DNA of 64,000 bases from an uncultured Candidatus Saccharibacteria bacterium (GTDB lineage: Bacteria > Patescibacteriota > Minisyncoccia > Phycocordibacterales > UBA12088), in assembly GCA_964567265.1 (NCBI GenBank), contig CAZMLK010000001.1, forward strand, positions 164,710-228,709. The letters run 5' to 3'. The first letter of the stretch is position 1, and each line of letters begins with the position of its first letter. A program made the translations under genes and the position numbers. Shown here in pieces: positions 9,507 to 62,191 of this stretch. A model generated the notes under the pieces. The model searched no databases, was not told the DNA's origin, and saw only the letters and a program-made list of their open reading frames with translations.

Positions 9507-9519
9507 GCACTTCGCCTAA

Positions 9520-10713
9520 TTACTTCTTTTCAATCTTCTTCCCAGTGTAGGAGAGCGTCATGCGCTGTTCTCCCGGTTCGAAGAGGGTGATGGTGAATGG
9601 ATAGCTCTTGCCGAGCTCGAGGGTCGCGCGGAGCTCCTCCTCGCTCTTCCACTCGCTGATGTGGACGAGTCCGGCGACACCTTCCTCGATTGAGGCGAGG
9701 GCGCCATGCTTGTTGTACTTGATGATCGCGGCATTCACGACGTCGCCCTTCTTGAACTTCTCCTTGGCCTGGTGCCATGGATTGTCGCGGAGCGCCTTGA
9801 TCGAGAGGGAGATCTTGCCGTCCTTGATCTCGATGATCTTTACCTTCACGTTCTCGCCGATCTTGTACATCGCCTTCGGATTCTCAACGAGACCCCAATC
9901 GATTTCGGAGATATGGACGAGTCCTTCGAGGCCGTTCTCGATCTTCACGAAGATGCCGAAGTCGACAGCACCGGTAACGGTACCCTCGAGGACATCGCCG
10001 ACCTGGTAGCGGTCAACCATGACTTCGCGCGCCTTCTGCTCCAAGCCCTTCTCAGAGAAGATGAGCTTTCCTTCCTTCGGATCGGCAGTAATGATCGAGA
10101 CCGCGAGGCGCTCGCCGACGAGGCGGCGGAGCTCGGAGAGGATCTTCTCCTTATCGCCGTCCTCTACACGCGGATAGTGCTCAGCCTTGAGCTGGGAAGC
10201 CGGAAGGAATCCAACAATGCCCTGCCATTCGATGATAAGGCCGCCCTTGTTCGCATCCTTGACCGGAAGCTCGAAGACCGTCTTGTTATTGATTGCGCTC
10301 TCTGCTTCGCTCCAAATGAGGGCCTGGCGGGCTTCCTTGAGGGAAAGCTCGATGTAGCCGTCCTTGTTCTCAGCATCCACGATCTTCGCGGCGATCGTGT
10401 CGTTCATGTTGACGCGGCGAAGGATATCGCGCGCGTTCAAGTACTCACGGCCGTAGATGATACCGGTGCCGTACGGAGGCAAGTCGACGTAGATCTTGTT
10501 GTGGCCAATGCCAACGACCGGACCTTCGATCAGGTCGCCTGCTTTCGGCTTTTCCGGACTCTTGTCCATGAGCGCCGTCATCGGGCTCTCCGGAAGGACC
10601 GGCAACACTTCGTCCATATCCTCTTCGACCACTGCGGCGCGGACCTTCTTCACTTTTGTTTCTTCCATATGGTGTTTCAACCGGCTCCGGGTGTTGTCCT
10701 CCGTGGCTAGCAA
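9520..10713 (-). CDS. rpsA: 30S ribosomal protein S1 (four S1 domains)
   Basis: Repeated S1 OB-fold motifs (G.V.G.V....G.FV.L..G..GL.H.SE), 397 aa; true start may be a downstream Met. Confidence 0.85.
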   Translation of the reverse strand: MLATEDNTRSRLKHHMEETKVKKVRAAVVEEDMDEVLPVLPESPMTALMDKSPEKPKAGDLIEGPVVGIGHNKIYVDLPPYGTGIIYGREYLNARDILRRVNMNDTIAAKIVDAENKDGYIELSLKEARQALIWSEAESAINNKTVFELPVKDANKGGLIIEWQGIVGFLPASQLKAEHYPRVEDGDKEKILSELRRLVGERLAVSIITADPKEGKLIFSEKGLEQKAREVMVDRYQVGDVLEGTVTGAVDFGIFVKIENGLEGLVHISEIDWGLVENPKAMYKIGENVKVKIIEIKDGKISLSIKALRDNPWHQAKEKFKKGDVVNAAIIKYNKHGALASIEEGVAGLVHISEWKSEEELRATLELGKSYPFTITLFEPGEQRMTLSYTGKKIEKK

Positions 10714-11182
10714 TAAGCGCGGACAAGGGTTACTCCGGGGTCGGGAACTGGTAATAGAATTGCTCGAAATGTATCCGAAAACGACCTTCTTGTCCAGCTG
10801 GGGTCCTTAAAATGACAAACGCCCGATATCCATAGGATTCGGGTCGTTCAGGTGTCCGTGAATCGGACAATTTTTTGGAAAGAACACCTCTTTCGAGGGG
10901 TCGTCGGGACCCGAGGGTCCCGACGGGGCGAGAGGTTTCCTGCGCCGGGCTGTGTCAGTGGCGAAGGGCAAATGCTGGGTTGTCGGTGTCGTCGGCGACG
11001 CGCATTGAGGCCTGGCTGCGCTCGGTCATGGCGGTGAGCTTTGCGGCGTGCGGCGAGTACGACTGCGGTCGATGATGCATCGGAGTCCTCCGACGAGGTG
11101 TGCGTGGAACGGATGTCCCACCACGTATTTGTATCAAATGTTCATGAAGGCTGCAAATGGTTCCAAAGGAAGCTGTGTATAG

Positions 11183-19478: not shown

Positions 19479-19844
19479 TTGATTATGAAGAAATTTGTCA
19501 CTGCAGCAACCGCAATCGGCGCATTCGCACCTGCATTTGCTTTCGCTGCACCGCTTGCCACAGGATTCGGTCCTACACTGCAGGCTACTGTCGACACGAT
19601 TGGTGCCATCGTCAACGCCCTTATCCCGATCGCCTTTGCAGCAGCGCTCCTCTTCTTCTTCTGGGGTCTCGCCAAGTACCTCCTTGGAGATGCAACCGAG
19701 CACGAGAAGGGCCGCAACCTCATGATCTGGGGCGTGATCGCGCTTGCGATCATGGCTTCCGTGTGGGGAATCGCCGCTGTCCTCCGCACGACCTTCGGCG
19801 TCGGAGGAGATACCACTGCGACTGTGCCGAAAGTCACTCCGTAA
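19479..19844 (+). CDS. Pilin-like small membrane protein, paralog E
   Basis: FFFWGLAKYLLGD and MIWGVIALAIMASVWGI motifs; own -10-like TAGAAT upstream. Confidence 0.6.
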   Translation: MIMKKFVTAATAIGAFAPAFAFAAPLATGFGPTLQATVDTIGAIVNALIPIAFAAALLFFFWGLAKYLLGDATEHEKGRNLMIWGVIALAIMASVWGIAAVLRTTFGVGGDTTATVPKVTP

Positions 19845-19913
19845 TCTGGCCTGCCTGTCGTAAGCTAGACCTCAGCATCTCTCCATTGCCAGTGCACTCG
19901 GAAGATCTGGCGA

Positions 19914-19952
19914 ACCGGGCCAACGATGCGAATCGTTGGCCCGGTTTCGGGT
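19914..19952 (+). terminator. Intra-array terminator/attenuator hairpin
   Basis: ccgggccaacgat-gcgaa-tcgttggcccgg then tttcgg. Confidence 0.5.
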
Positions 19953-19972
19953 CTGGAGGCAGCCTCCTGTAC

Positions 19973-20320
19973 ATGAAAAAAGCAATCCTTACCGTCCTCA
20001 CGTTTTCTGCGATTCCTGGAATCGCGCTTGCCGCATTTCCGGATACGATGGAAGAATTCGTGAACAGGGTCAATGATGCCATCATCAACCCAATCCTGGC
20101 CCTCATCTTTGTGTCTGCGCTCCTTTATTTCTTCTGGGGCGGCATCCAGTTCCTCCTCAATGCGGACAATGCGACCGCACGCACCGATGGCAAGAACCAC
20201 ATGTTCTGGGGAATCATCGGCATGTTCGTCATGGTCTCGGTCTATGCACTCCTCGCGGTGCTCCTCGGGACCTTCGAGGTCGCGCCGCCCGCTGGTCTTC
20301 CGATCGACAGCTGGATATAG
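19973..20320 (+). CDS. Pilin-like small membrane protein, paralog F
   Basis: MKKAILTVLTF signal peptide, YFFWGGIQFLLNAD and MFWGIIGMFVMVSVYAL; GGAGG RBS. Confidence 0.6.
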   Translation: MKKAILTVLTFSAIPGIALAAFPDTMEEFVNRVNDAIINPILALIFVSALLYFFWGGIQFLLNADNATARTDGKNHMFWGIIGMFVMVSVYALLAVLLGTFEVAPPAGLPIDSWI

Positions 20321-20388: not shown

Positions 20389-22245
20389 TTACTTAGCGTT
20401 GACGGCCACTGTAATCAGTAGCGCGCTGTCCGCGTCCGGTGAGACATGGAAGGCGATGGCAACCTGGTTGCTACCAGATTTTCCGATCAATGTTTTGACA
20501 TCGGGAGTCTTGACTGGCTCCTTGTTCGCATCGCGGAACTCGGCAGTGATGAAGCCCTTTTTCAGTGTCGTGGTCGCCCACTCGGCCTTCGAGGTTTCAT
20601 CCCAGCAGAGCCAGCCGCTCCAGTTCCCCGGCTTCACCGTGATGTGGTTGGTGATTCCGGGAGGGAAGATGTACCGGCATTCTGCAACTGAAGCTTTTTG
20701 CGACTGGCCCGCAAAGCGAGCGGTAATCCCTGAGCTGGTTGCCAGTATTCCGAGGAGTAGGAGCGTTAGTATCGCGATGATGGCGGTCTTGCTCATGAGC
20801 CGGCCGAGGCCGGGTACGAGCGAGAGTGTCATGTAGATGAAGGGGATTACGAATCCCCAGACCCCGAGCGTCAAGAGAAGCTCGATGATGGGTCCGAGCC
20901 CGCTCCACCAGCGGTTCGAGTCATCGAACCCAAGGAAGAAGAACAGGGCCATGAGCATTGCGACTACAGAGAGTACCTTGAGCTGCTCCCGTGGCAGATG
21001 ACCCGTCGCATAGTAGCTGACCGCGAACGCGAGCAGCCCGAATGCGAAGAGGCCTTCGACAAGATAGATGCGACCCAGGGTCGGCATTCCGGCGGAAGCA
21101 AGGATGCCCCAGCCGAACCGCTGATCACAAAGCGTGAACAACGTCGCGGAGATAAGTATGATGAGCAGGAAGGAAAGCAGCCTTGCAAACCCACCGTAAA
21201 CTAACCCGTCCGCCGCGAAGACCTTTATACGGCCCGCGAGCGAACCCAAAATTAAGAGAACAGTGAACGCCTCACGCTGAGGCATCCAGATGCGCACCCA
21301 TTCGACCACACGAGCCGCTGTGACCCAGCCTTCTTTCGTGAGGTACGCTCCGAAGACTGGTAGATTCGCGACGATATGCGGATAGACGGAGTATGCGAAC
21401 GCGCCGAAGGCGATTGCTCTGAGCGTTATGAATGCCCATCCAAGAGTCCTGGGGAGCTGCGCTCCCCAGCGGAACGTGAAGCAGAGCGCCAAAAATATGA
21501 CGACGTACTTCCACAAGACCGGGTGATGGACGAGGGATGCGCTCGCGCTTTGCGGCATCAGGCCTGTCGGGTCGGAACCCAAGAGGTAGAGTGCTGTCAG
21601 TGGGAGGAGGATCAAGATCACTGCAGCGAGGGAAGGCCACGAGTCACGTGCGAACCGCGTAAGCCGCGATGGGTCCGTGTCGGGGGGCGTTCCCGGATCA
21701 ACTGCTGGCGCAGCAGCAACGGGAGTGGCAACAGGTGCCGCGACAGGTGCTGCTGCCGGAGGCGTCGCCACAGGCGGCACAACTGCAGCTGGTGCAACTG
21801 GAGCAGCGTATGACGCTTGAGCTGGCACCGGCGGTGCCAGCCATCTCCGAACGAGATACATGATCCCGATCCCGCCTGCCGTAGCGAGGACGAGGAAGGG
21901 AAGCAGTATCTTTAGCGCGATGCCGAGGCCATAGTTGAGCGTGCTCTGAAAGTCCGTGAACCATCCGGTGTACCACGTCAGTGCTATCCCGGATAGGATG
22001 AGGAGAAGCAGTACATGCTTTCGATTCAGTGTGTCCATTGTTCCTCCCAGGGTTGCTGTGGTTGAGGAGAACCCTCGGCGCGCGGCGGACAGCGTGTGCT
22101 GTCCGCCTGCAACCGCCATTCTCCGAAGCTGCTGTTCAATCCTTCCCCCTCTAGCATGACGCCAGACGAGGAAGGCAAGTGCTGCAGTTCCGCAGATGCG
22201 GAGTGCTATAAGGAGCCATCCTCCTAAGGGAAAGAAATCGATCAT
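20389..22245 (-). CDS. Large polytopic membrane protein (about 10 TM) with Pro/Ala-rich linker and C-terminal beta-rich domain
   Basis: 618 aa, many hydrophobic helices, PPVPAQASYAAPVAP...AAAPAVDPGTPPDTD linker; translationally coupled to upstream SPFH gene. Confidence 0.6.
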   Translation of the reverse strand: MIDFFPLGGWLLIALRICGTAALAFLVWRHARGGRIEQQLRRMAVAGGQHTLSAARRGFSSTTATLGGTMDTLNRKHVLLLLILSGIALTWYTGWFTDFQSTLNYGLGIALKILLPFLVLATAGGIGIMYLVRRWLAPPVPAQASYAAPVAPAAVVPPVATPPAAAPVAAPVATPVAAAPAVDPGTPPDTDPSRLTRFARDSWPSLAAVILILLPLTALYLLGSDPTGLMPQSASASLVHHPVLWKYVVIFLALCFTFRWGAQLPRTLGWAFITLRAIAFGAFAYSVYPHIVANLPVFGAYLTKEGWVTAARVVEWVRIWMPQREAFTVLLILGSLAGRIKVFAADGLVYGGFARLLSFLLIILISATLFTLCDQRFGWGILASAGMPTLGRIYLVEGLFAFGLLAFAVSYYATGHLPREQLKVLSVVAMLMALFFFLGFDDSNRWWSGLGPIIELLLTLGVWGFVIPFIYMTLSLVPGLGRLMSKTAIIAILTLLLLGILATSSGITARFAGQSQKASVAECRYIFPPGITNHITVKPGNWSGWLCWDETSKAEWATTTLKKGFITAEFRDANKEPVKTPDVKTLIGKSGSNQVAIAFHVSPDADSALLITVAVNAK

Positions 22246-23624
22246 CAGTTCCCATCTCCTTGGGTTGGGGGCGCCGCGGCAGGTGCCGCGTCGTCTGTTT
22301 TCGCCTTGCCTTGCCTGCGGATGCCGGCAAGGTTCGCAGTCTGCGACTCTCGTTGGCCAGCCCCGATGAACATGTCGACATTGGACGCATTCCTTGCAGC
22401 TTCAACGCCTGCGCGATTCCGCAGGTATTCTTCCGCGAACTGGCCGTGCTCTTCGATTCCCGCAAGCTCTTCTTCAATGATCTTACGGCGGCCCTTCGCT
22501 TCACCCGTGAGTTCTTCGGCGGTACGCTTGCCCTTCTGTTTGCCTTCGAACTCTGCAGCGAGGAAGCCTTCGATATCTTTGGCGCGCGCCGGATCAAGAT
22601 CTGGATCGCGGACATCGACATCCTTCACTACCTCGAACCCGATTGATTGGATGAACTGCTCTCTCGGAACACGCACGATGGACGCATTCGGATCACGTTT
22701 CTTCCGTGCAGCGAGGTCCGCGTCAATGACATCCTGTTCGACGCCCATGAGGCCGTCTCGGATGAATTGCGCGAGCGCACGCTTGTCTTCCGGCGACATT
22801 TCTCTGCCGGCATAGACTTGCCTGATGTCAGCTCCCTGGGCATATTCGCGTACGAGGTTTTGGACCCTGACCGCGATCTGCTGCTCCCACGCCCTGGCTT
22901 CCCAGAACGCGAGTACCGGGTTCACGCACCGAAGCGTGAGCACGATATGGAACCGGACATCATAACCTTGGAGCGTCGGTACCCCGGCACTGATGACGTG
23001 CAGCTGAAACTGCGCGTGGACCACCTTGCCGGTACGATCCTTCTCAGGTTCGTAGATCTCCACTTGCTTGCCGTCCCGTACGACGATGTCGTAGCGGACG
23101 CGGCGGAAGTCACGCGTCTCAACAGCCCACCCAAGCGGTGATAGCACGAGATGGGTGCCGGTCACTGCTTGTACGACGCGACGTGCGGCGTACCAGGGGC
23201 TGAACCACCCCCACTTACTGTAGAGGGGTCCATGGACCGGGTGCCGTGTCTTGTCGTGGTTGATGTGCCAATCCGCAACGCTCTTCTTGCTCGGCACTCG
23301 ACCCTTGTCGAGCTGCCATTCAAAGCAGGATTCAGACGCGGCGTCGATGAGATACGCGCTCACGTTTCCGCCGTAGGTCAGGCATACCACCGCATCCGGT
23401 TGCACCTCAACGAAGAGGTACTGCTCCGGAAGGGGAGGCTTGCCCTGGGCGATACGCGCAGCGTTCGTCTTGTCGATATTCGCGTCGTAATGCAGATTCT
23501 TATGCCAGAAGAATGTCGAGGCAGCTGCACCGACGGCGAGCGCGTAGATGGACGCGTACGATGCGAGTCCAGTGATGAAGAGACCCTGCCACATTCGATT
23601 TTTCCTTAAGTTGTCGAGGAACAC
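22245..23624 (-). CDS. SPFH/band-7 domain membrane protein (flotillin/stomatin-like)
   Basis: N-terminal TM, SPFH-like core, long charged coiled-coil C-terminus; 459 aa. Confidence 0.6.
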   Translation of the reverse strand: MFLDNLRKNRMWQGLFITGLASYASIYALAVGAAASTFFWHKNLHYDANIDKTNAARIAQGKPPLPEQYLFVEVQPDAVVCLTYGGNVSAYLIDAASESCFEWQLDKGRVPSKKSVADWHINHDKTRHPVHGPLYSKWGWFSPWYAARRVVQAVTGTHLVLSPLGWAVETRDFRRVRYDIVVRDGKQVEIYEPEKDRTGKVVHAQFQLHVISAGVPTLQGYDVRFHIVLTLRCVNPVLAFWEARAWEQQIAVRVQNLVREYAQGADIRQVYAGREMSPEDKRALAQFIRDGLMGVEQDVIDADLAARKKRDPNASIVRVPREQFIQSIGFEVVKDVDVRDPDLDPARAKDIEGFLAAEFEGKQKGKRTAEELTGEAKGRRKIIEEELAGIEEHGQFAEEYLRNRAGVEAARNASNVDMFIGAGQRESQTANLAGIRRQGKAKTDDAAPAAAPPTQGDGN

Positions 23625-23825
23625 CGAGGGTGTACCCTCACAGTTTCGACTAGCAGACGGAATGCCTGCTTCTGCGGAGATTTATATCATATAAAAATAC
23701 AAAAGTCAAGCTATAGCTTGACGCGATGACGGCAGAATAGTCTTATTTTAAGTCGTGGTTTGGGGGGAGGGGAGACAAAATTGACTGGGCAATTTTTGAG
23801 CGGATTCGTCTTTGTTTGTTGGAGG

Positions 23826-23910
23826 AGGACTTGGTCACGAGTTACTAAGGATTGCTCGTCACAAGCTCCTCAAATCCTAAGTACTCGTGACCCCGCCTCA
23901 GAGCTGGGGG
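23826..23910. repeat. Palindromic ~80-nt repeat element, copy 1 (tRNA-trailer associated)
   Basis: ggtcacgagttactaaggatt...aatcctaagtactcgtgacc inverted repeat followed by CCCGCCTCAG; about 92% identical to copy at 24318-24400. Confidence 0.7.
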
Positions 23911-24069
23911 AGAGGAATCTTGGTCCTTACAGGACCTGTACACCTTTCGTATTTTTTCGGAGCAGAGCTCCTCAAAAATATACTCAAGGTCGTTCATGTC
24001 CTCTCACGCGAGGCGAGCAGTCGCCTCGCTCCCAGCACTGCGAAAATTCCGCAAAGCTCCATTTTCTAG

Positions 24070-24151
24070 TGCTGGGGAGAGGACTTGAACCTCCATGGGT
24101 TGCCCCGTCTGCTCCTAAGGCAGGTGCGTATACCAATTCCGCCACCCCAGC
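24070..24151 (-). tRNA. tRNA-Leu (anticodon TAG)
   Basis: Cloverleaf with long variable arm, anticodon loop CTTAGGA, GTTCAAGTCC T-loop; no encoded CCA. Confidence 0.85.
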
Positions 24152-24317
24152 ATGTGTGTACTATAGCAAATAGACCTCCGCCATGGCTGCTTCTTCACAA
24201 GGAACTCTCTCCCTTACGGGAGCAGTATCCCGATTGGGTTTTTTGAACGGCCAGCAAAGGCCGTCAAAAAAAGCTCAATCGGGCTTCGAGTCCTTGTGGA
24301 ACTCTCCAAGAAGGTGC

Positions 24318-24400
24318 CGAGGACTCGGTCACGAGTCACTAAGGATTACTCGTCGCAAGCTCCTCAAATCCTAAGTGCTCGCGACCCCGCCTCAGTCCAG
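24318..24400. repeat. Palindromic ~80-nt repeat element, copy 2, flanked by 18-bp direct repeats antisense to tRNA-Lys 3' end
   Basis: Near-identical to 23826-23910; flanks cttcgagtccttgtgg at 24283-24300 and 24427-24444. Confidence 0.7.
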
Positions 24401-24467
24401 GCTCCGCGGGAGCCTGGACTCTCGGCCTTCGAGTCCTTGTGGGCTCAAAATTTCTTCGAAATTTTAG

Positions 24468-24540
24468 TCCGCCCACAAGGACTCGAACCTTGGACCATCT
24501 CCTTAAGAGGGAGTTGCTCTACCAACTGAGCTATGGGCGG
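24468..24540 (-). tRNA. tRNA-Lys (anticodon CTT)
   Basis: GCTCAGTTGGTAGAGC D-arm, anticodon loop CTCTTAA, GGTTCGAGTCC T-arm. Confidence 0.8.
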
Positions 24541-24689
24541 ATATCGGCACTTTAGCGAGGGGCAGGGGTCTCCTTCTCCAAGCCTCAAATGACTGCGAAA
24601 GTTTACAATATTTTCACGATTTGTGCCAACTTCCTATCCAGAGGTACCAAGGGTCTGCATGCTATTATTTGAGCGCTAAGACATGCTGC

Positions 24690-25892
24690 ATGCCGGACAC
24701 TCACACACAGAACGGAACGTCATGGCTCGATCGATTGAGGAGGCTTCCGATAGAAGCGTATGTCATTCTGGTGCCCGCGTTCTCTGCGATTCTTATCGTC
24801 ACGTTCTTCTTCCGTGATACCGCGCTCGTGATGGGCGTCGCTGAACTCACGAGCCCGGAGGGCATCGCGCACTCCATTGACGTACTCGGAGGCGGCACCT
24901 GGTTCGCGTATGTGTTCCAGGGTGCCGCATTCATCACGCTCACGCATCTTTTCCGGACGGTGTATCGAAGCATCCAGACGTTTCCGGCATTCCACGATTC
25001 CTTCAGAAGCGTCTGCATGACTGAAAAAGGATTCATCGCGAGCCTGCTCTGGATTGCGCTCCTCTTCACTGCGATCAATCTGTCGATCGGCATCTTCACG
25101 CATTTTCTATTCATGCATGCGGACCCCGTGCGTGCCGGCGCTGTATCTTCGTACCTTCTTGAAACGGAGTATGGAATGTTTGGAGTCTATCCGCATCTCG
25201 CGATTGCAAGTGCGCTCTCAGTATGGCCGCTCCTCGATACGCTGATCGTCCTGTCGTATCAGAACCTGCCACTGGCGATCTTCTTCGTGCTCATTCCCGC
25301 GCTTTTCCTTGGAAGGATATACATCGTCCGGTGGTTCCTCCTCTCGTTCTTCATCGTCTATCTGATCGCGGTTCCGATCTGGATACTTTCTCCTGCGGTG
25401 AGCCCGCTTGAGTTCCAGATCGAAAATACCCTCCACGTATCACAGACGGATGCGTCGGTGCGAGCAGCAGCTCTGTTTAGGGAACAGGGACTCGGAGAGA
25501 CGGGGAATCGCTACATCGAGCAGCTGAAGAAGTTCTGGATCGATCCGAGCGGAAAGACCTTTGCCATCACCTGCAATCCGAGCATGCATACTGCCTTCGC
25601 GATCGTGCTTCTCGCGGTCGCGTATCGTATCCGATTCCTCCTCGGCGTCCTCATGACTCCGTGGTTCATCCTGTGCATCCTCGGAACGGTGTATACGCTC
25701 CAGCACTACCTCACTGACGTAGTGACGGGAGGACTGGTCGCAGCTGCCGCGCTTACGCTTGCTGCCTGGTTTCTCCGCCTGGATGCAAGATACATTGTTC
25801 GGTCAGAACGGTTCTATGTGGCGGCGCTGGTATTCAAAGCGGATATGGCGAAGGTTGCGTCGGCGATGCGCAGGTTTTTAGGGGTGCGGTAG
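24690..25892 (+). CDS. Polytopic membrane protein, PAP2-like (phosphatidic acid phosphatase type 2 superfamily) motif
   Basis: Multiple TM helices; PSMHTA resembles the PAP2 PSGH box; start uncertain. Confidence 0.45.
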   Translation: MPDTHTQNGTSWLDRLRRLPIEAYVILVPAFSAILIVTFFFRDTALVMGVAELTSPEGIAHSIDVLGGGTWFAYVFQGAAFITLTHLFRTVYRSIQTFPAFHDSFRSVCMTEKGFIASLLWIALLFTAINLSIGIFTHFLFMHADPVRAGAVSSYLLETEYGMFGVYPHLAIASALSVWPLLDTLIVLSYQNLPLAIFFVLIPALFLGRIYIVRWFLLSFFIVYLIAVPIWILSPAVSPLEFQIENTLHVSQTDASVRAAALFREQGLGETGNRYIEQLKKFWIDPSGKTFAITCNPSMHTAFAIVLLAVAYRIRFLLGVLMTPWFILCILGTVYTLQHYLTDVVTGGLVAAAALTLAAWFLRLDARYIVRSERFYVAALVFKADMAKVASAMRRFLGVR

Positions 25893-25951
25893 GGGAAATA
25901 GTTGGGGAATCGATCACGGATAATTTTGCAAGCAAAATTTCCGCGACCCCG

Positions 25952-25980
25952 CCTCAGAAAAGCCCTCCCAGGGCTTTTCT
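25952..25980 (-). terminator. Terminator hairpin downstream of tRNA-Leu(TAA)
   Basis: aaaagccct-ccc-agggctttt symmetric A/T-flanked hairpin. Confidence 0.55.
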
Positions 25981-26033
25981 TCCGGCCTTCGATTCCCACC
26001 CCCGGAACTCTTCACTATGCTTCGCTTCGTTCG

Positions 26034-26119
26034 GTGCCGGGGGTGGGAATCGAACCCACACGAGCTTTTACACTCTCGGGATTTTAAGTCCCGTATGTCT
26101 ACCAGTTCCATCACCCCGG
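26034..26119 (-). tRNA. tRNA-Leu (anticodon TAA)
   Basis: Type-II tRNA, anticodon loop CTTAAAA, GGTTCGATTCC T-arm; 86 nt. Confidence 0.85.
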
Positions 26120-26299
26120 CGTGGGGTCTTTCAAAAGTAGAGTACCAATATACTCGCTCGAATCGGTCCGTACCGGACCAGTACCCCGATTGGATTTTTT
26201 GAACGGCCCCATACGACCTTCAAAAAATGCTCAATCGGGCTTTGATTCTCGCACAGACGCTCCGCCGGAGCGTCTTCGAGGCTCCTCGCTCCGCTTCGG

Positions 26300-26371
26300 A
26301 GTCCACGGCGAGAATCGAACTCGCGTATAAAGGTTTTGCAAACCCTTGCCTTACCACTTGGCTACGTGGAC
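26300..26371 (-). tRNA. tRNA-Cys (anticodon GCA)
   Basis: Anticodon loop TTGCAAA, U73 discriminator typical of Cys, GTTCGATTC T-loop; 72 nt. Confidence 0.75.
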
Positions 26372-26391
26372 ATCTCAATCTACCTGCCCAT

Positions 26392-26679
26392 TTATACTTT
26401 GGGAGCGAGGGCAAAGTCAATGAAGGGAAGGCGCTTCAGGCGGCTCTTCTCCTTGAGGTATTCGCGGAACTCGCCGCGATTGCGCTTCAGGAAATCAATG
26501 GCAGGCACCTCGCGGTCGGTAGGGTATACCGACACGTAGACGATAGCCTTCTTGCCGTCATCAGTCATGAAGACGCCGGTCACGGTGATCATCGAGAGCC
26601 GATTGGATTCCAGGTTCACGAATGCTGCCGCGAGGCGCTGCAATTCTTCCCGGGCCCTCAGTGTCGTGTCGTCCAGCAT
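26392..26679 (-). CDS. rbfA: Ribosome-binding factor A
   Basis: 95-aa KH-like protein, RLSMITVTGV..DGKKAIVYVS pattern, downstream of infB. Confidence 0.8.
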   Translation of the reverse strand: MLDDTTLRAREELQRLAAAFVNLESNRLSMITVTGVFMTDDGKKAIVYVSVYPTDREVPAIDFLKRNRGEFREYLKEKSRLKRLPFIDFALAPKV

Positions 26680-34076: not shown

Positions 34077-34159
34077 GCGTCGGTGGCGGAGTGGTCAATC
34101 GCACTTGGCTGTAAACCAAGCGGCTTATGCCTACGGGGGTTCGAATCCCTCCCGGCGCA
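34077..34159 (+). tRNA. tRNA-Tyr (anticodon GTA)
   Basis: Long variable arm, anticodon loop CTGTAAA, GGTTCGAATCC T-arm; 3' end embedded in long palindrome. Confidence 0.85.
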
Positions 34160-34205
34160 CAAATAGAAAAATCCCCGAAAGGGGATTTTTCTATTTGTGC
34201 GCCGG
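34152..34205. terminator. Long perfect palindrome/bidirectional terminator incorporating tRNA-Tyr 3' end
   Basis: ccggcgcacaaatagaaaaatcccc-gaaa-ggggatttttctatttgtgcgccgg. Confidence 0.7.
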
Positions 34206-34386
34206 AGCAAAGCGCTGAGCGCTTTGCGTGAGGGATTCGAAGACCTTTTCGATGTTTGTGAGGAGCTTTGCTCTGAACAAACCGAAAAGGTGTACTGCGC
34301 CTGTAAGGCGAGAATCTCGAATCCTCCAAAAATCTATCCCCACACAAAACACCCAATCGAAGCCACTTTCCCGCTATACTTTCCCT

Positions 34387-35508
34387 ATGCACCGCATACG
34401 GCCTCTCCATCGGTTCTTGATCGGGAGTCTTTTCCTGTTTCTCACTATTTTGCCGATTACGATGCTCTCGGCACAAAACCTCATCCCTTGCAGCGGGCCC
34501 GACTGCGATCTCTGCAGCTTCGTCCAGCTCGGGCAGAACATCATCAACTTCCTCGTCTACTTCTCGACCCTGCTTGCGACGGTGCTCTTCTGCTATGCCG
34601 GATTCAAGATGCTGACCGGAGCCGATAACCCAGGCGCGATCACCAAAGCAAAAAAACTCTTTTGGACAGTCCTCTGGGGCTTCGCGCTTCTCCTGGCGGC
34701 ATGGCTCATCCTCGATACTGCGATGCGTCTCCTCTTTGAGGATTCGGAGCTTCGCGCCACCGAATTCGGACGTCCGTGGAACGAGATCCTCTGCCAGTTC
34801 CAGAACGGCGCGCCGGCGCAGAATGTCTTCGTCACATTGACGGCGACGCCGAATCCGATAGCCGTGCCGGGCGGCAACATTACGCTTACCTGGACATCAT
34901 TCGGGGCAATAGCCTGTGCTGCGGGCGGGGGCTGGGCGGGCACGAAGGCGCTCAACGGGTCGGAAGTGGTCGCAATCACAACAACTACGGCGTTCGCGCT
35001 CTCCTGCGTCAATGCTGATGGGGATAGCGCAACAGTCACTGTGAGCGTGGTGGTTGGTACCGGGCCTGGGCCTGGAAGCTGTAGCATCACGGAGGATGGT
35101 CCCTGCGGTACCATCGCGCTCGCGGACATGTTCGGTCCAATCGCATCCCAGGCGTCTCAAATCTGCAGCGCGGAAAGCGCTGGTGATCCTGCGAGCGAAA
35201 GCAAGACCGACATCCTCATTGCGTCCGGACTTCCATTCTCGATCGGTCTTTTCCAGATCAACATGACGCAGCACAATCTGACGGGTCCCGCATGCAGGGC
35301 GCTCAATGGCGGGAACCCGCTCAACTGCATCAGCGCGTTTTCTGGGAAGAATTACACCGCCACGATCGTGGATATGCCGCTCTACGAGCAGTGCCGCGCC
35401 GCCCTCAAGAATCCGGATTGCAATGCTGAAACGGCGGCAGGTATCGTGACCACAGACGGCGGCAGCTGGCGCCAATGGTCCACGGCCAAGAAATGTAAAC
35501 TTCCGTAG
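34387..35508 (+). CDS. Composite secreted protein: pilin-like N-domain + Ig-like region + lytic transglycosylase (SLT-like) domain
   Basis: Signal peptide, CSGPDCDLCS, two TM helices (paralog of 36180-36611), then C-terminal AESAGDPASES...GLFQIN SLT/GEWL signature. Confidence 0.6.
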   Translation: MHRIRPLHRFLIGSLFLFLTILPITMLSAQNLIPCSGPDCDLCSFVQLGQNIINFLVYFSTLLATVLFCYAGFKMLTGADNPGAITKAKKLFWTVLWGFALLLAAWLILDTAMRLLFEDSELRATEFGRPWNEILCQFQNGAPAQNVFVTLTATPNPIAVPGGNITLTWTSFGAIACAAGGGWAGTKALNGSEVVAITTTTAFALSCVNADGDSATVTVSVVVGTGPGPGSCSITEDGPCGTIALADMFGPIASQASQICSAESAGDPASESKTDILIASGLPFSIGLFQINMTQHNLTGPACRALNGGNPLNCISAFSGKNYTATIVDMPLYEQCRAALKNPDCNAETAAGIVTTDGGSWRQWSTAKKCKLP

Positions 35509-36945: not shown

Positions 36946-37016
36946 GGGCCTATAGTTTAGTGGTAAAATTCTGGTCTCCAAAACCAGCGTCGCAGGTTCG
37001 AGTCCTGCTGGGCCCG
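36946..37016 (+). tRNA. tRNA-Trp (anticodon CCA)
   Basis: Anticodon loop CTCCAAA, G73 discriminator, GGTTCGAGTCC T-arm. Confidence 0.85.
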
Positions 37017-37212
37017 CTACGAACGAAGTGAGTAAGACGGGTCCAGAGGAAGCTCCGGGGGAGCTTCCGTCAGGACTCGAAAAGCTTGCGAGATTTTTTA
37101 GCGAACTCGTTCGCCTAAAAAATCCGCAAGGTGTACTGAAGCTGTAAGCTTCGAGATTTTGAATACTTCTGGCAGAATTAGTAATGACACTTGATCAAAT
37201 CAATCAAAAATT

Positions 37213-40650: not shown

Positions 40651-40826
40651 GAATCGGACTCTCGATTCCTGCAGAATCAGTACACCTTTCAATTGACTCG
40701 GTCACAAGTCGTATGGCCTGAGAGGCCATACGCTAGCGACCCCACTCTGAAATAATCTCTCCCAGAGATTATTTCAGAGTCTTCGATTCCCTCCCCCGGC
40801 ACTCTTCAATACGCTTCGCTTCTCGG

Positions 40827-40907
40827 TGCCGGGGGAGGGACTCGAACCCTCAAGCCTTGCGGCATGCGATTTTGAGTCGCACGTGTATACCATTCCACCA
40901 CCCCGGC
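40827..40907 (-). tRNA. tRNA-Leu (anticodon CAA)
   Basis: Type-II tRNA, anticodon loop CTCAAAA, GGTTCGAGTCC T-arm; 81 nt. Confidence 0.85.
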
Positions 40908-62120: not shown

Positions 62121-62191
62121 TGGGGAGTCGTCTAATGGTAGGACAGAGGCCTTTGAAGCCTTTAATTGGGGTTCGAATCCCTACTCCCCAG
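62121..62191 (+). tRNA. tRNA-Gln (anticodon TTG)
   Basis: U1-A72 pair, anticodon loop CTTTGAA, GGTTCGAATCC T-arm. Confidence 0.8.

Follow-up and report, generated by a model that had tools for sequence, protein, structure and literature searches.

Seven of the eight tRNA genes in a 64,000-nucleotide stretch of contig CAZMLK010000001.1 (the window, positions 164,710 to 228,709 of the contig; coordinates below are those of the window) are followed by a structured element of about 90 to 250 nt that encodes no protein and carries both an inverted and a direct copy of the 3' end of the very tRNA behind which it lies. Elements of the same architecture, restricted to the tails of tRNA and transfer-messenger RNA (tmRNA) genes and joined to their tRNA-derived sequence at a fixed position, C56 of the T-loop, occur widely in Paceibacteria-type bacteria of the Candidate Phyla Radiation (CPR). 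We put the probability at roughly 0.5 that these are inserted, protein-less structured elements with target-derived arms, residing in the tRNA and tmRNA 3' flanks of these bacteria.

Read in the sense of the tRNA, each unit consists of the tRNA up to U55 followed by X, a loop, antiX, a two-hairpin core, and a second, direct copy of X that begins with C56 (..GUGAC followed by CGA..), where X denotes the segment from C56 of the T-loop to one or more bases beyond the discriminator. The loop between the tRNA and antiX is either a locus-specific terminator hairpin (A-tract, GC stem, and U-tract) or a linker, GAACGAAGYGA. AntiX is the Watson-Crick complement of X, and it complements the 3' strand of the tRNA rather than being copied from the 5' strand: where tRNA-Tyr has U4.G69 and G50.U64, the trailer has C and A. 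It is contiguous behind tRNA-Lys, tRNA-Leu(TAA), and tRNA-Leu(CAA), and behind tRNA-Tyr, tRNA-Trp, tRNA-Cys, and tRNA-Leu(TAG) it is split precisely between its acceptor and T-stem parts by an AG-hp2-CGT module, in which hp2 is a hairpin. Together with the distal X, antiX forms helix H1 of a three-way junction, a topology common to two core families, A and B; the core itself spans about 86 nt. The initial annotation of this DNA, made from the letters alone, had pointed out the antisense trailers; the hairpin that splits them at the acceptor/T-stem junction had gone unseen, as had the degenerate direct tRNA 3'-end copies that close each element at its distal side.

The antisense of the tRNA's own T-loop, T-stem 3' strand, and acceptor 3' strand is a real feature of these seven trailers, as judged from its specificity for the cognate tRNA and its rarity in shuffled sequence. 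When the last 30 nt of each tRNA were compared with every 150-nt trailer, the cognate combination gave the maximum for seven of the eight tRNAs (19, 19, 17, 14, 13, 11, and 11), against 6 to 10 for noncognate combinations, the exception being the near-identical Leu(TAA)/Leu(CAA) pair. In 500 dinucleotide shuffles per trailer, the observed match was never attained for Lys, Leu(TAA), Tyr, or Leu(CAA), was attained once each for Leu(TAG) and Trp, and was attained eight times for Cys, so that the claim of antisense trailers holds above shuffled controls. For tRNA-Gln, which has no element, 35 of the 500 shuffles attained the match, and the upstream flanks of the tRNAs stayed at background level in the same test.

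Most of the individual repeats that the annotation had described were recovered. They include the inverted copy behind tRNA-Leu(TAA) (25988-26008 with 26034-26054, 21 nt, 95%, by a repeat finder), that behind tRNA-Leu(CAA) (antiX at 40782-40800, 19/20), the Tyr palindrome with its 25-nt arms (34152-34205), the spacer common to the two leucine trailers (26007-26034 and 40801-40826), and two 92% identical hairpin copies of about 77 nt (23825-23901 and 24319-24395, by the repeat finder), the second of which is bracketed by direct repeats (24279-24299 and 24422-24442, 21 nt, 95%). Behind tRNA-Lys there are indeed two antisense copies, although the proposed score of 17/19 gives way to 17/17 (24428-24444 with 24471-24487) and 15/15 (24285-24299 with 24473-24487). 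The 11-nt block behind tRNA-Trp exists too, although at 37071-37081 and not at 37079-37089, with an acceptor part at 37038-37046, and the motif CGYGACCCCGCCTCAG, described as recurring in four trailers, has three exact copies plus a variant at 40736-40744. The repeat finder also returned an inverted repeat for tRNA-Cys (26241-26252 with 26308-26319, 11/12).

The core of family A was defined from a pattern scan of metagenomes, in which about 60% of the matches listed were GC-rich chance matches in coding DNA; matches were filtered by context and then with a covariance model. Among the matches listed, the true ones lie 65 to 330 nt behind a same-strand tRNA of any identity. Thirty-eight parsed copies gave the consensus antiT-UCGAA-A-GNC-GGAG-hp3-GAG-N'C-GGGGUC-hp4-YGUGAC, followed by CGA.., and N and N' of GNC/GN'C pair in 38/38 copies, with all four Watson-Crick combinations seen. 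In this structure H1 is the T-arm antisense paired with X positions 56 to 65; H2 comprises GNC/GN'C, a GGA/GA internal loop, and hp3; and H3 is hp4 with a bulged A. The covariance model, built on ten short copies, finds four copies in the window (61, 55, 27, and 20 bits) and at least 81 copies at E<1e-3 in 69 sources among Paceibacteria-type genomes and metagenomes. In the family A alignment 92.3% of structure cells pair, compared with 69.9% after shuffling and 34 to 44% with partners slid; the alignment was fitted to its model, which favors structure, and the slid controls and the independent parsing of 38 copies agree with it. Compensatory changes on both sides occur at 24 of the 31 pairs, and a G.U at 147:216 is kept in 74 of 79 copies. 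In one A-type subfamily (L014, L020, L091, L100, and L052) the T-loop antisense reads UGAGAA and not UUCGAA, and tandem G.A pairs would then form opposite G57 and A58 of the distal copy.

Family B places its core between antiX and X, as family A does, and this core consists of a long hairpin, RUACWG, and a 5-bp hairpin capped by a UGUAA loop, of which C56 is the final base. In the window it is found after Tyr, Trp, Cys, Leu(TAG), Lys (second unit), and Leu(CAA). An unguided RNAalifold prediction from 12 B copies returned a three-way junction as in family A, with 15 of its 20 pairs compensatory.

The cores thus covary, and their G.U pairs are strand specific. Among the non-Watson-Crick pairs in H2 and H3, read on the tRNA-sense strand, there are 131 G.U against 9 A.C, and the summed folding energy is -1487 kcal/mol for that strand compared with -1139 kcal/mol for the other. 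This excess of G.U over A.C argues that the core folds, and is under selection, as one strand with the polarity of the tRNA, be it RNA or the top strand of the DNA. H1, the arm that contains the tRNA copy, shows no such preference (G.U 19 to 23, A.C 17 to 19), and this symmetry makes the tRNA complementarity look like templated copying followed by symmetric decay rather than wobble-tolerant selection at the RNA level.

Both arms derive from the cognate tRNA. The tRNA could be identified for 63 A-type copies, and among these the acceptor part of the distal X, scored over nine positions, matched at eight or more in 34 (0.1% for noncognate tRNAs) and the acceptor-antisense in 11 (0.3% for noncognate tRNAs), and the T-arm antisense was cognate in most. 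Where the distal X is intact, the direct repeat measures 18 to 32 nt (46 nt once), always starts at C56, and ends 1 to 14 nt beyond the discriminator, and the DNA from the proximal X to antiX is locus specific. In many relatives the distal X is intact at 17 to 27 nt, again always starting with C56 after ..GTGAC. A perfect distal X tends to go with a missing acceptor-antisense; where the distal X has decayed, as in all window copies, antiX is near perfect and the 8 to 10 nt of distal X needed for H1 are still there.

The elements are also retained over long periods, during which antiX follows changes in the tRNA. At the relative locus L002, whose IF-2 is 67% identical to that of the window, elements of the same type lie at Tyr, Cys, and Leu(TAA), and their hairpin sequences have diverged yet are still paired. 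Between the two loci antiX tracks two acceptor substitutions in tRNA-Leu(TAA) and one T-stem substitution in tRNA-Cys.

In the 64-kb window the core motifs occur in tRNA trailers only. A same-strand tRNA lies within 450 nt upstream of 66 of the 81 A-type copies, nine of the remaining copies are at contig ends, and the tRNAs concerned belong to 15 amino acid families; a few orphan, inverted, or truncated A-type copies exist. At locus L103 an A-type element (1396-1505) lies 58 nt past a tmRNA gene (944-1337) and has an antisense arm that fits the tmRNA T-arm, so the elements are not restricted to tRNAs. The relatives identified through IF-2 are all Paceibacteria-type Patescibacteria (Campbellbacteria, Nomurabacteria, Kaiserbacteria, and Paceibacterota), the closest being 67% identical. 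Across them the gene order IF-2-Cys-Leu(TAA)-Lys-Leu(TAG) is kept, and the spacing of these tRNAs is 17 nt in some genomes and hundreds of nucleotides in others. Long spacers have the same element architecture every time, related genomes without elements have the same tRNAs 17 nt apart, and one and the same tRNA may be followed in different relatives by different element types or by none.

The order of parts, in which U55 of the tRNA is followed by X-loop-antiX-core-GUGAC and then by X and the flank, is as integration of a circle between U55 and C56, or reverse splicing at that point, would yield. From this anatomy we infer a mechanism in which a small circle, X-loop-antiX-core, would recombine into the tRNA gene between U55 and C56; by an alternative route, element RNA would be reverse-spliced into the tRNA transcript and then copied back into DNA. 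The element's own X would complete the tRNA, and the original 3' end would be displaced downstream, free to decay. AntiX folded on X would form a hairpin copy of the target, acting as a mimic of an attachment (att) site or as a guide, and the core, folded on the tRNA-sense strand as RNA or single-stranded DNA, would presumably be recognized by a catalyst or act as one. In old copies, such as those in the window, the displaced X would have decayed to the roughly 8 to 10 nt needed for H1, with antiX staying complementary to the resident tRNA. Repeated events at one tRNA would give rise to arrays of the kind observed behind tRNA-Lys, where an A unit is followed by a B unit, and behind tRNA-Leu(TAG), where a B unit is followed by an A unit, in tandem or nested arrangement. 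Behind tRNA-Lys, the sequence from the A core to the second antiX reads as an X with a 6-nt deletion plus a short loop, as the insertion model predicts. One reading in the initial annotation had been that of scars of repeated small-element insertion; the insertion part is borne out by discrete elements, the fixed junction of ..GTGAC with C56, direct repeats, arrays, and presence or absence among relatives, and the word "scars" does not suit a covarying three-way-junction core.

Several observations weigh against insertion. The weakest point is that every copy has cognate arms, so that a move to a new tRNA species would need re-targeting, which we can account for only by rare events plus correction. 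Core similarity is 0.63 within genomes and 0.59 between genomes, and since it is no higher within than between, recent bursts within genomes are not in evidence; a perfect direct repeat may mark either a recent copy or identity kept by conversion. Two scans of viral contigs returned GC-rich chance matches and no true copy, and no autonomous, open reading frame (ORF)-carrying version was found among left halves without a nearby right end. No integrase, transposase, or reverse transcriptase was present among 35 ORFs of the window searched against Pfam (nearly all of those of at least 180 amino acids), and no recombinase, transposase, or reverse transcriptase recurs near the 81 A-type copies; the search for integrase genes that had been proposed for these trailers therefore came back negative in the window and around those copies alike. 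Neither tnpA nor tnpB was seen among the Pfam-scanned window ORFs or recurrently near those copies. Clustering of neighboring genes around the A-type copies gave only IF-2, RbfA, and spurious ORFs as recurrent, and IF-2 and RbfA recur because the loci were chosen that way. We also considered ordering the copies in a series from young (perfect distal X) to old (perfect antiX), which we set aside since the low within-genome core similarity allows upkeep by conversion.

The sole find of the left-half search was an inverted compact copy in L123. There, at about 1722-1866, a second A-type core in inverted orientation faces the first across a displaced copy of the tRNA-Arg 3' end, the only convergent pair seen.

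Whether the elements are transcribed bears on the explanation that competes most closely with insertion, namely that they are a cis-acting part of the pre-tRNA. The trailer would then clamp its own T-arm and acceptor 3' strand, toggle with the distal copy, and steer 3' processing, termination, storage, or quality control, and the elements would be lineage-specific functional modules, not insertions. The initial annotation had likewise raised a dedicated processing or termination structure that uses the tRNA as half of its stem. In the minimum-free-energy fold of tRNA plus trailer, 17 to 22 nt of the tRNA 3' part pair with the trailer in six of the eight window tRNAs, and in these six the trailer-paired fold beats any fold that keeps the cloverleaf by 6 to 22.5 kcal/mol in purely thermodynamic terms; on that measure the alternative hairpin is predicted to compete with the T-arm in these six, a point that the annotation had raised as a question. 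Where transcribed, antiX can, according to these predictions, thermodynamically clamp the tRNA 3' half. The cluster Lys-A-B-Leu(TAG)-B-A lies between a promoter-like site before tRNA-Lys (24629-24600, minus strand) and a terminator-like hairpin after the last Leu(TAG) element (23705-23722, minus strand), both from a consensus scan only. This bracketing suggests a single transcription unit and makes it probable that the Lys and Leu(TAG) elements are transcribed. Behind tRNA-Leu(TAA), tRNA-Leu(CAA), and tRNA-Trp a linker occupies the place of the terminator, so that in these copies no terminator precedes antiX. That seven of the eight window tRNAs have an element, that antiX is near perfect in the window whereas the distal copies have decayed, that it follows the tRNA substitutions between the window and L002, that the copies are old and have diverged as much within genomes as between them, and that the core covaries in the manner of RNA all suit a pre-tRNA function as well.

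A pre-tRNA function fares less well elsewhere. In 34 of 61 copies a canonical terminator-like hairpin separates the tRNA from the element, compared with only 11 in which one follows the distal X. The elements appear dispensable, since related genomes without them have the same tRNAs 17 nt apart; most copies with an intact distal X have no acceptor-antisense; and mismatches in the tRNA-complementary arm show no preference for G.U. Insertion better accounts for copies that are tandem, nested, orphan, or inverted and for direct repeats that extend into non-tRNA flank, and the trapping of essential single-copy tRNAs would be costly. We therefore regard a cis-acting clamp as possible though rather unlikely, with folding energetics and the tracking by antiX in its favor and the terminators, the dispensability, the missing acceptor-antisense, and the symmetry of H1 against it.

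Insertion itself might take a more radical form, in which the core would be a small catalytic or catalyst-recruiting RNA, antiX its guide, and U55/C56 the point of breaking and rejoining, making the whole a protein-less, intron-like, self-inserting element. We consider this unlikely; if true, it would represent a new class of mobile ribozyme or guide-directed element in bacteria, the integrated form of which regenerates the host tRNA by itself and leaves a displaced 3' fragment over. The known catalytic RNAs offer no match. A hammerhead was rejected because the junction linkers (AAR, GGG, and 0 nt) misfit the hammerhead core and because E-value scans of Rfam were negative for known ribozymes; a kink-turn at the GGA/GA internal loop was a candidate by eye and was not established.

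AntiX and the distal X can rebuild both the acceptor stem and the T stem of the host tRNA, the branch point of hp2 coincides exactly with that of the D and anticodon arms, and half of the copies keep the discriminator and 1 to 6 further nucleotides in the distal X. These features could point to a separate gene for a small RNA closed by a tRNA-like helix, in which hp2 replaces the D and anticodon arms and which RNase P and RNase Z would free from read-through transcripts. We find this very unlikely, given that the T-loop is paired or replaced by the core, so that the elbow recognized by RNase P is missing, that the acceptor-antisense is missing in most copies with an intact distal X, that there is no evident promoter and the terminator usually lies upstream, and that no tRNA-like Rfam match covers the element.

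A direct repeat of a tRNA 3' segment that starts in the T-loop and ends just past the tRNA, together with a decaying displaced copy and tandem accretion, is also what remnants of ordinary integrase-dependent elements would leave behind, that is, a prophage, an integrative and conjugative element, or a cis-mobilizable element inserted at the T-loop of which only the attL and attR arms remain and whose hairpins are integrase arm sites. Such remnants are hardly probable here: the units measure merely 90 to 250 nt, neither the window nor the surroundings of the 81 copies contain an integrase, one core stands behind 15 tRNA families plus tmRNA where integrases are tRNA specific, the core covariation is of single-strand type (131 G.U against 9 A.C, with a conserved G.U), an antisense copy is foreign to att sites, and the viral contigs yielded no element.

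The least probable of the explanations weighed is that the trailers are by-products of replication template switching at palindromes, with the terminator hairpin and the palindromic TTCGAA of the T-loop as partners in tandem inversion duplication or quasipalindrome correction, and that they involve neither an element nor a function. Tandem inversion duplications are recognized by just this order of X, inverted X, and X, perfect palindromes extend from terminator to acceptor strand (Tyr, 34152-34205; also L047 and L056), and H1 mismatches are strand symmetric; as the sole explanation it is refuted by a conserved, covarying core at at least 81 loci, a conserved hp2 module interleaved with target-specific segments, and a constant junction of GTGAC with C56, none of which it explains, although template switching may contribute to growth and upkeep of the acceptor-antisense part. 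Plain fold-back copying of the tRNA end, taken as the whole story, fails likewise on the interleaving of the AG-hp2-CGT module with target-specific segments. A retroviral-type primer-binding site, which would complement the 3'-terminal 18 nt of the mature tRNA including CCA, was rejected because beyond the discriminator antiX matches the genomic trailer instead of CCA, and in many cases it does not reach the 3' end: the Tyr antiX reads TTGTGCGCCGG, compared with TGGTGCGCCGG expected of a primer-binding site, and the Lys antiX stops before the 3' end.

ARAGORN and Rfam return the same set of eight tRNA genes for the window, on the minus strand Leu(TAG) (24070-24151), Lys(CTT) (24468-24540), Leu(TAA) (26035-26120), Cys(GCA) (26300-26371), and Leu(CAA) (40827-40907) and on the plus strand Tyr(GTA) (34077-34159), Trp(CCA) (36946-37016), and Gln (62121-62191). 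None of the eight encodes CCA, and in all eight a C directly follows the discriminator. The A-type element of the window with the highest model score is that of Leu(TAA), on the minus strand. The X segment of this tRNA, which begins at C56 and extends one base beyond the discriminator (about 26034-26054), is copied in the trailer; the linker CCGAACGAAGCGAAGCATAGTGAAGAGT (26007-26034), of the GAACGAAGYGA type also found after Leu(CAA) and Trp, replaces the terminator hairpin; and the contiguous antiX (25988-26006) leads into a three-way-junction core (25901-25999; 61.4 bits, E about 1e-12) composed of hp3 (25957-25979), GAGGCGGGGTC plus hp4 (25913-25955), and a degenerate direct X (25901-25912). 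The purine-rich linker GAACGAAGYGAAG stands in place of the terminator at 26007-26034, 40801-40826, and 37017-37037 in the window, and also at L002, L064, L079, L113, and L046.

Behind tRNA-Lys, also on the minus strand, a weak AT-rich hairpin 1 (24445-24466) precedes the first antiX (24428-24444) and an A-type core (24316-24439; 55 bits) with hp3 at 24395-24419, hp4 at 24328-24393, which is one of the two copies of what had been described as an 80-nt element, and a decayed direct X at 24313-24327. The second antiX (24285-24299) opens the B-type element, whose core (24193-24283) contains the long hairpin (24229-24283), ATACTG with the small hairpin (24209-24228), and an X remnant (24193-24208). 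The Leu(TAG) trailer has a split antiX (23992-24037), made up of the acceptor-antisense (24029-24037), hp2 (24009-24028), and the T-arm antisense (23992-24005), and a B-type core (23903-23989) with the long hairpin at 23943-23989, GTACAG and the UGUAA hairpin at 23922-23941, and a direct X at 23903-23921. A partial A-type element follows it (23821-23899; 19.7 bits; 92% identical to 24319-24395), composed of GAGGCGGGGTC plus hp4 (23834-23899, the other copy of the 80-nt element) and a second X remnant (23821-23833). The Cys element (26155-26275, minus strand) runs from hp2 (26255-26275) through the T-arm antisense (26241-26252, 11/12), a B-type long hairpin (26185-26239), and GTACTG with the small hairpin (26165-26184) to an X remnant (26155-26164).

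On the plus strand, the Tyr palindrome (34152-34205) takes in the last bases of tRNA-Tyr, the A-tract/GC/T-tract terminator hairpin, and the acceptor-antisense, and the rest of the element (34208-34327), which has an ortholog at L002, comprises hp2 (34208-34226), the T-arm antisense (34230-34241), a B-type long hairpin (34244-34290), GTACTG with its hairpin (34292-34312), and a partial X (34317-34327). The Trp element (37017-37152, plus strand) has its linker at 37017-37037, the acceptor-antisense at 37038-37046, hp2 at 37049-37067, the T-arm antisense at 37071-37081, a B-type long hairpin at 37085-37131, and GTACTG with the UGUAA hairpin at 37133-37152. Finally, the Leu(CAA) element (40664-40826, minus strand) combines the linker (40801-40826), antiX (40782-40800), an A-type core (40689-40793; 27 bits) with hp3 at 40744-40780, hp4 at 40701-40743, and an X remnant at 40690-40700, and, after that core, a B-type small hairpin (40664-40683).

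Three further loci have tRNA-derived repeats near elements or tRNA tails. In L114 (about 640-830) a truncated second tRNA-Lys(TTT), comprising its 5' two-thirds, is joined to an A-type element directly upstream of an intact tRNA-Lys with its own element. L014 (about 10745-10940) has tandem repeats of about 94 nt that consist of partial tRNA-Leu(TAA) copies, from the anticodon-stem region to the 3' end, plus an AT-rich insert, a tRNA-tail repeat of another kind than the A and B elements. In L011 (about 9510-9545) a 27-nt copy of the entire T-arm and the acceptor 3' strand of tRNA-Lys lies 66 nt downstream of that gene, with no recognizable A or B core.

The window encodes the housekeeping proteins of a reduced genome, among them a short IF-2, RbfA, GyrA, TopA, ClpB, SerRS, and HisRS, as well as RelA/SpoT, ParB, DprA, MiaA, and Dus, and the Pfam-scanned ORFs belong to housekeeping families or to no assigned family. 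Two adjacent ORFs beside the tRNA cluster, 20389-22245 (618 amino acids) and 22245-23624 (459 amino acids), both on the minus strand, have no Pfam match. Type IV secretion pilin-like domains occur in ORFs 19763-20320 and 34228-35508 on the plus strand; the latter also has a lysozyme-like SLT_3 domain, and since its called start falls within the tRNA-Tyr trailer, the true start probably lies further downstream.

A gathering-threshold scan of the window with Rfam 15, whose families include hammerhead, twister, hairpin, and HDV-like ribozymes, group I and group II introns, IS605-orfB, HEARO, and tRNA-like RNAs, returned only the eight tRNAs, and in E-value scans of 23650-26420 of the window and of 12600-14250 of L003 only tRNAs rose above noise; the best non-tRNA match was IS605-orfB-I, at 17.5 bits compared with a gathering score of 94. 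No match to a known insertion sequence (IS) or miniature inverted-repeat transposable element (MITE) family emerged, and a full-text literature search found no description of such elements, the nearest being group I introns in tRNA and tmRNA genes of Patescibacteria. We rate the family as previously undescribed and outside known kinds, since it shares single features with several known systems and misses at least one defining feature of each of them, with the mechanism inferred from anatomy only. If the insertion reading holds, an abundant and unnoticed class of elements would lie behind most tRNA genes of ultra-small CPR bacteria. About 100 examples would then define two or more new motifs of structured RNA (or single-stranded DNA), and these would offer a test case for target-derived or guide-like recognition of the T-loop without a linked protein gene. 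It would also have to be asked how single-copy tRNAs that are essential reach maturity if their trailers can outcompete the cloverleaf by 6 to 22 kcal/mol. In practical terms the elements inflate tRNA intergenic regions, and their tRNA-3'-end repeats could pass for prophage att sites in CPR genomes.

Among known systems, functional 3' external transcribed spacers of tRNAs, such as 3'ETS-leuZ of Escherichia coli, which acts as a sponge, resemble the elements as trailers of tRNAs, which in the elements too may act by base pairing, but the element trailer is complementary to its own tRNA and has a conserved three-way junction. With regard to tRNA-like RNAs of the type of mascRNA and plant t-elements, antiX and the distal X can form acceptor- and T-like stems, but the core takes the place of the T-loop and most such copies lack the acceptor-antisense. 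An intrinsic terminator, a GC-rich hairpin with a U-tract right behind the gene, accounts for hairpin 1, in 34 of 61 copies and in the Tyr palindrome (34152-34205), and does not account for antiX or the core. Repetitive extragenic palindromic (REP) sequences, bacterial interspersed mosaic elements (BIMEs), MITEs, and the palindromic elements of IS200/IS605 are likewise short, hairpin-rich intergenic repeats with a hairpin at the junction. Unlike REP and BIME sequences, however, the elements are confined to tRNA trailers in 64 kb rather than dispersed and have low intragenomic similarity; unlike in MITEs, their flanking inverted repeat is target derived and different at every tRNA, and the duplication is variable, at 18 to 46 nt; and as regards IS200/IS605, which insert 3' of a fixed tetra- or pentanucleotide and do not duplicate the target, the elements have hairpins specific to one strand and a junction fixed at U55, yet their target is duplicated and neither tnpA nor tnpB was seen in the scans given above.

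The systems that insert into tRNA genes come closer. Like integrative elements and cis-mobilizable elements that use the 3' ends of tRNA and tmRNA genes as attB, by way of tyrosine integrases with crossover in the T-loop or the anticodon loop, the elements lie directly 3' of an intact tRNA, carry a direct repeat of the 3' segment starting in the T-loop, and show tandem accretion and the topology of circle integration; unlike them, they have no integrase, measure 90 to 250 nt, serve 15 tRNA families plus tmRNA with one core, add an inverted copy of the target, and covary in the core as a single strand of RNA type. Two inverted segments that mimic a double-stranded target, strand specificity, and conserved wobble and bulged bases (G.T or G.U, and the bulged A in hp4) recall the folded single-stranded DNA of CTX-phi and of integron attC sites, a resemblance of topology only, as the target is a tRNA T-loop and not dif or attI, there is no Xer or IntI site consensus, and the elements are tiny and noncoding. 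Retrozymes are small nonautonomous elements built around self-cleaving ribozymes (PMC4918200). The elements share with them the lack of proteins, the structured, multicopy, and repeat-flanked form, and a mobility that would rely on RNA structure plus trans-acting enzymes, but they differ in having no detected known ribozyme motif, a bacterial host, strict confinement to tRNA tails, and target-derived arms. Group I introns occupy tRNA anticodon loops and tmRNA T-loops in Patescibacteria (PMC13011429). As in group I and group II introns and IStrons, a structured element with a guide-like segment complementary to the flanking exon sits at a precise site in tRNA and tmRNA genes, and insertion into the T-loop is known for group I introns in tmRNA. 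In contrast to these introns, the elements match neither RF00028 nor group II models, have a core of only about 86 nt, and duplicate their target, and because the tRNA upstream is already complete, no splicing is needed.

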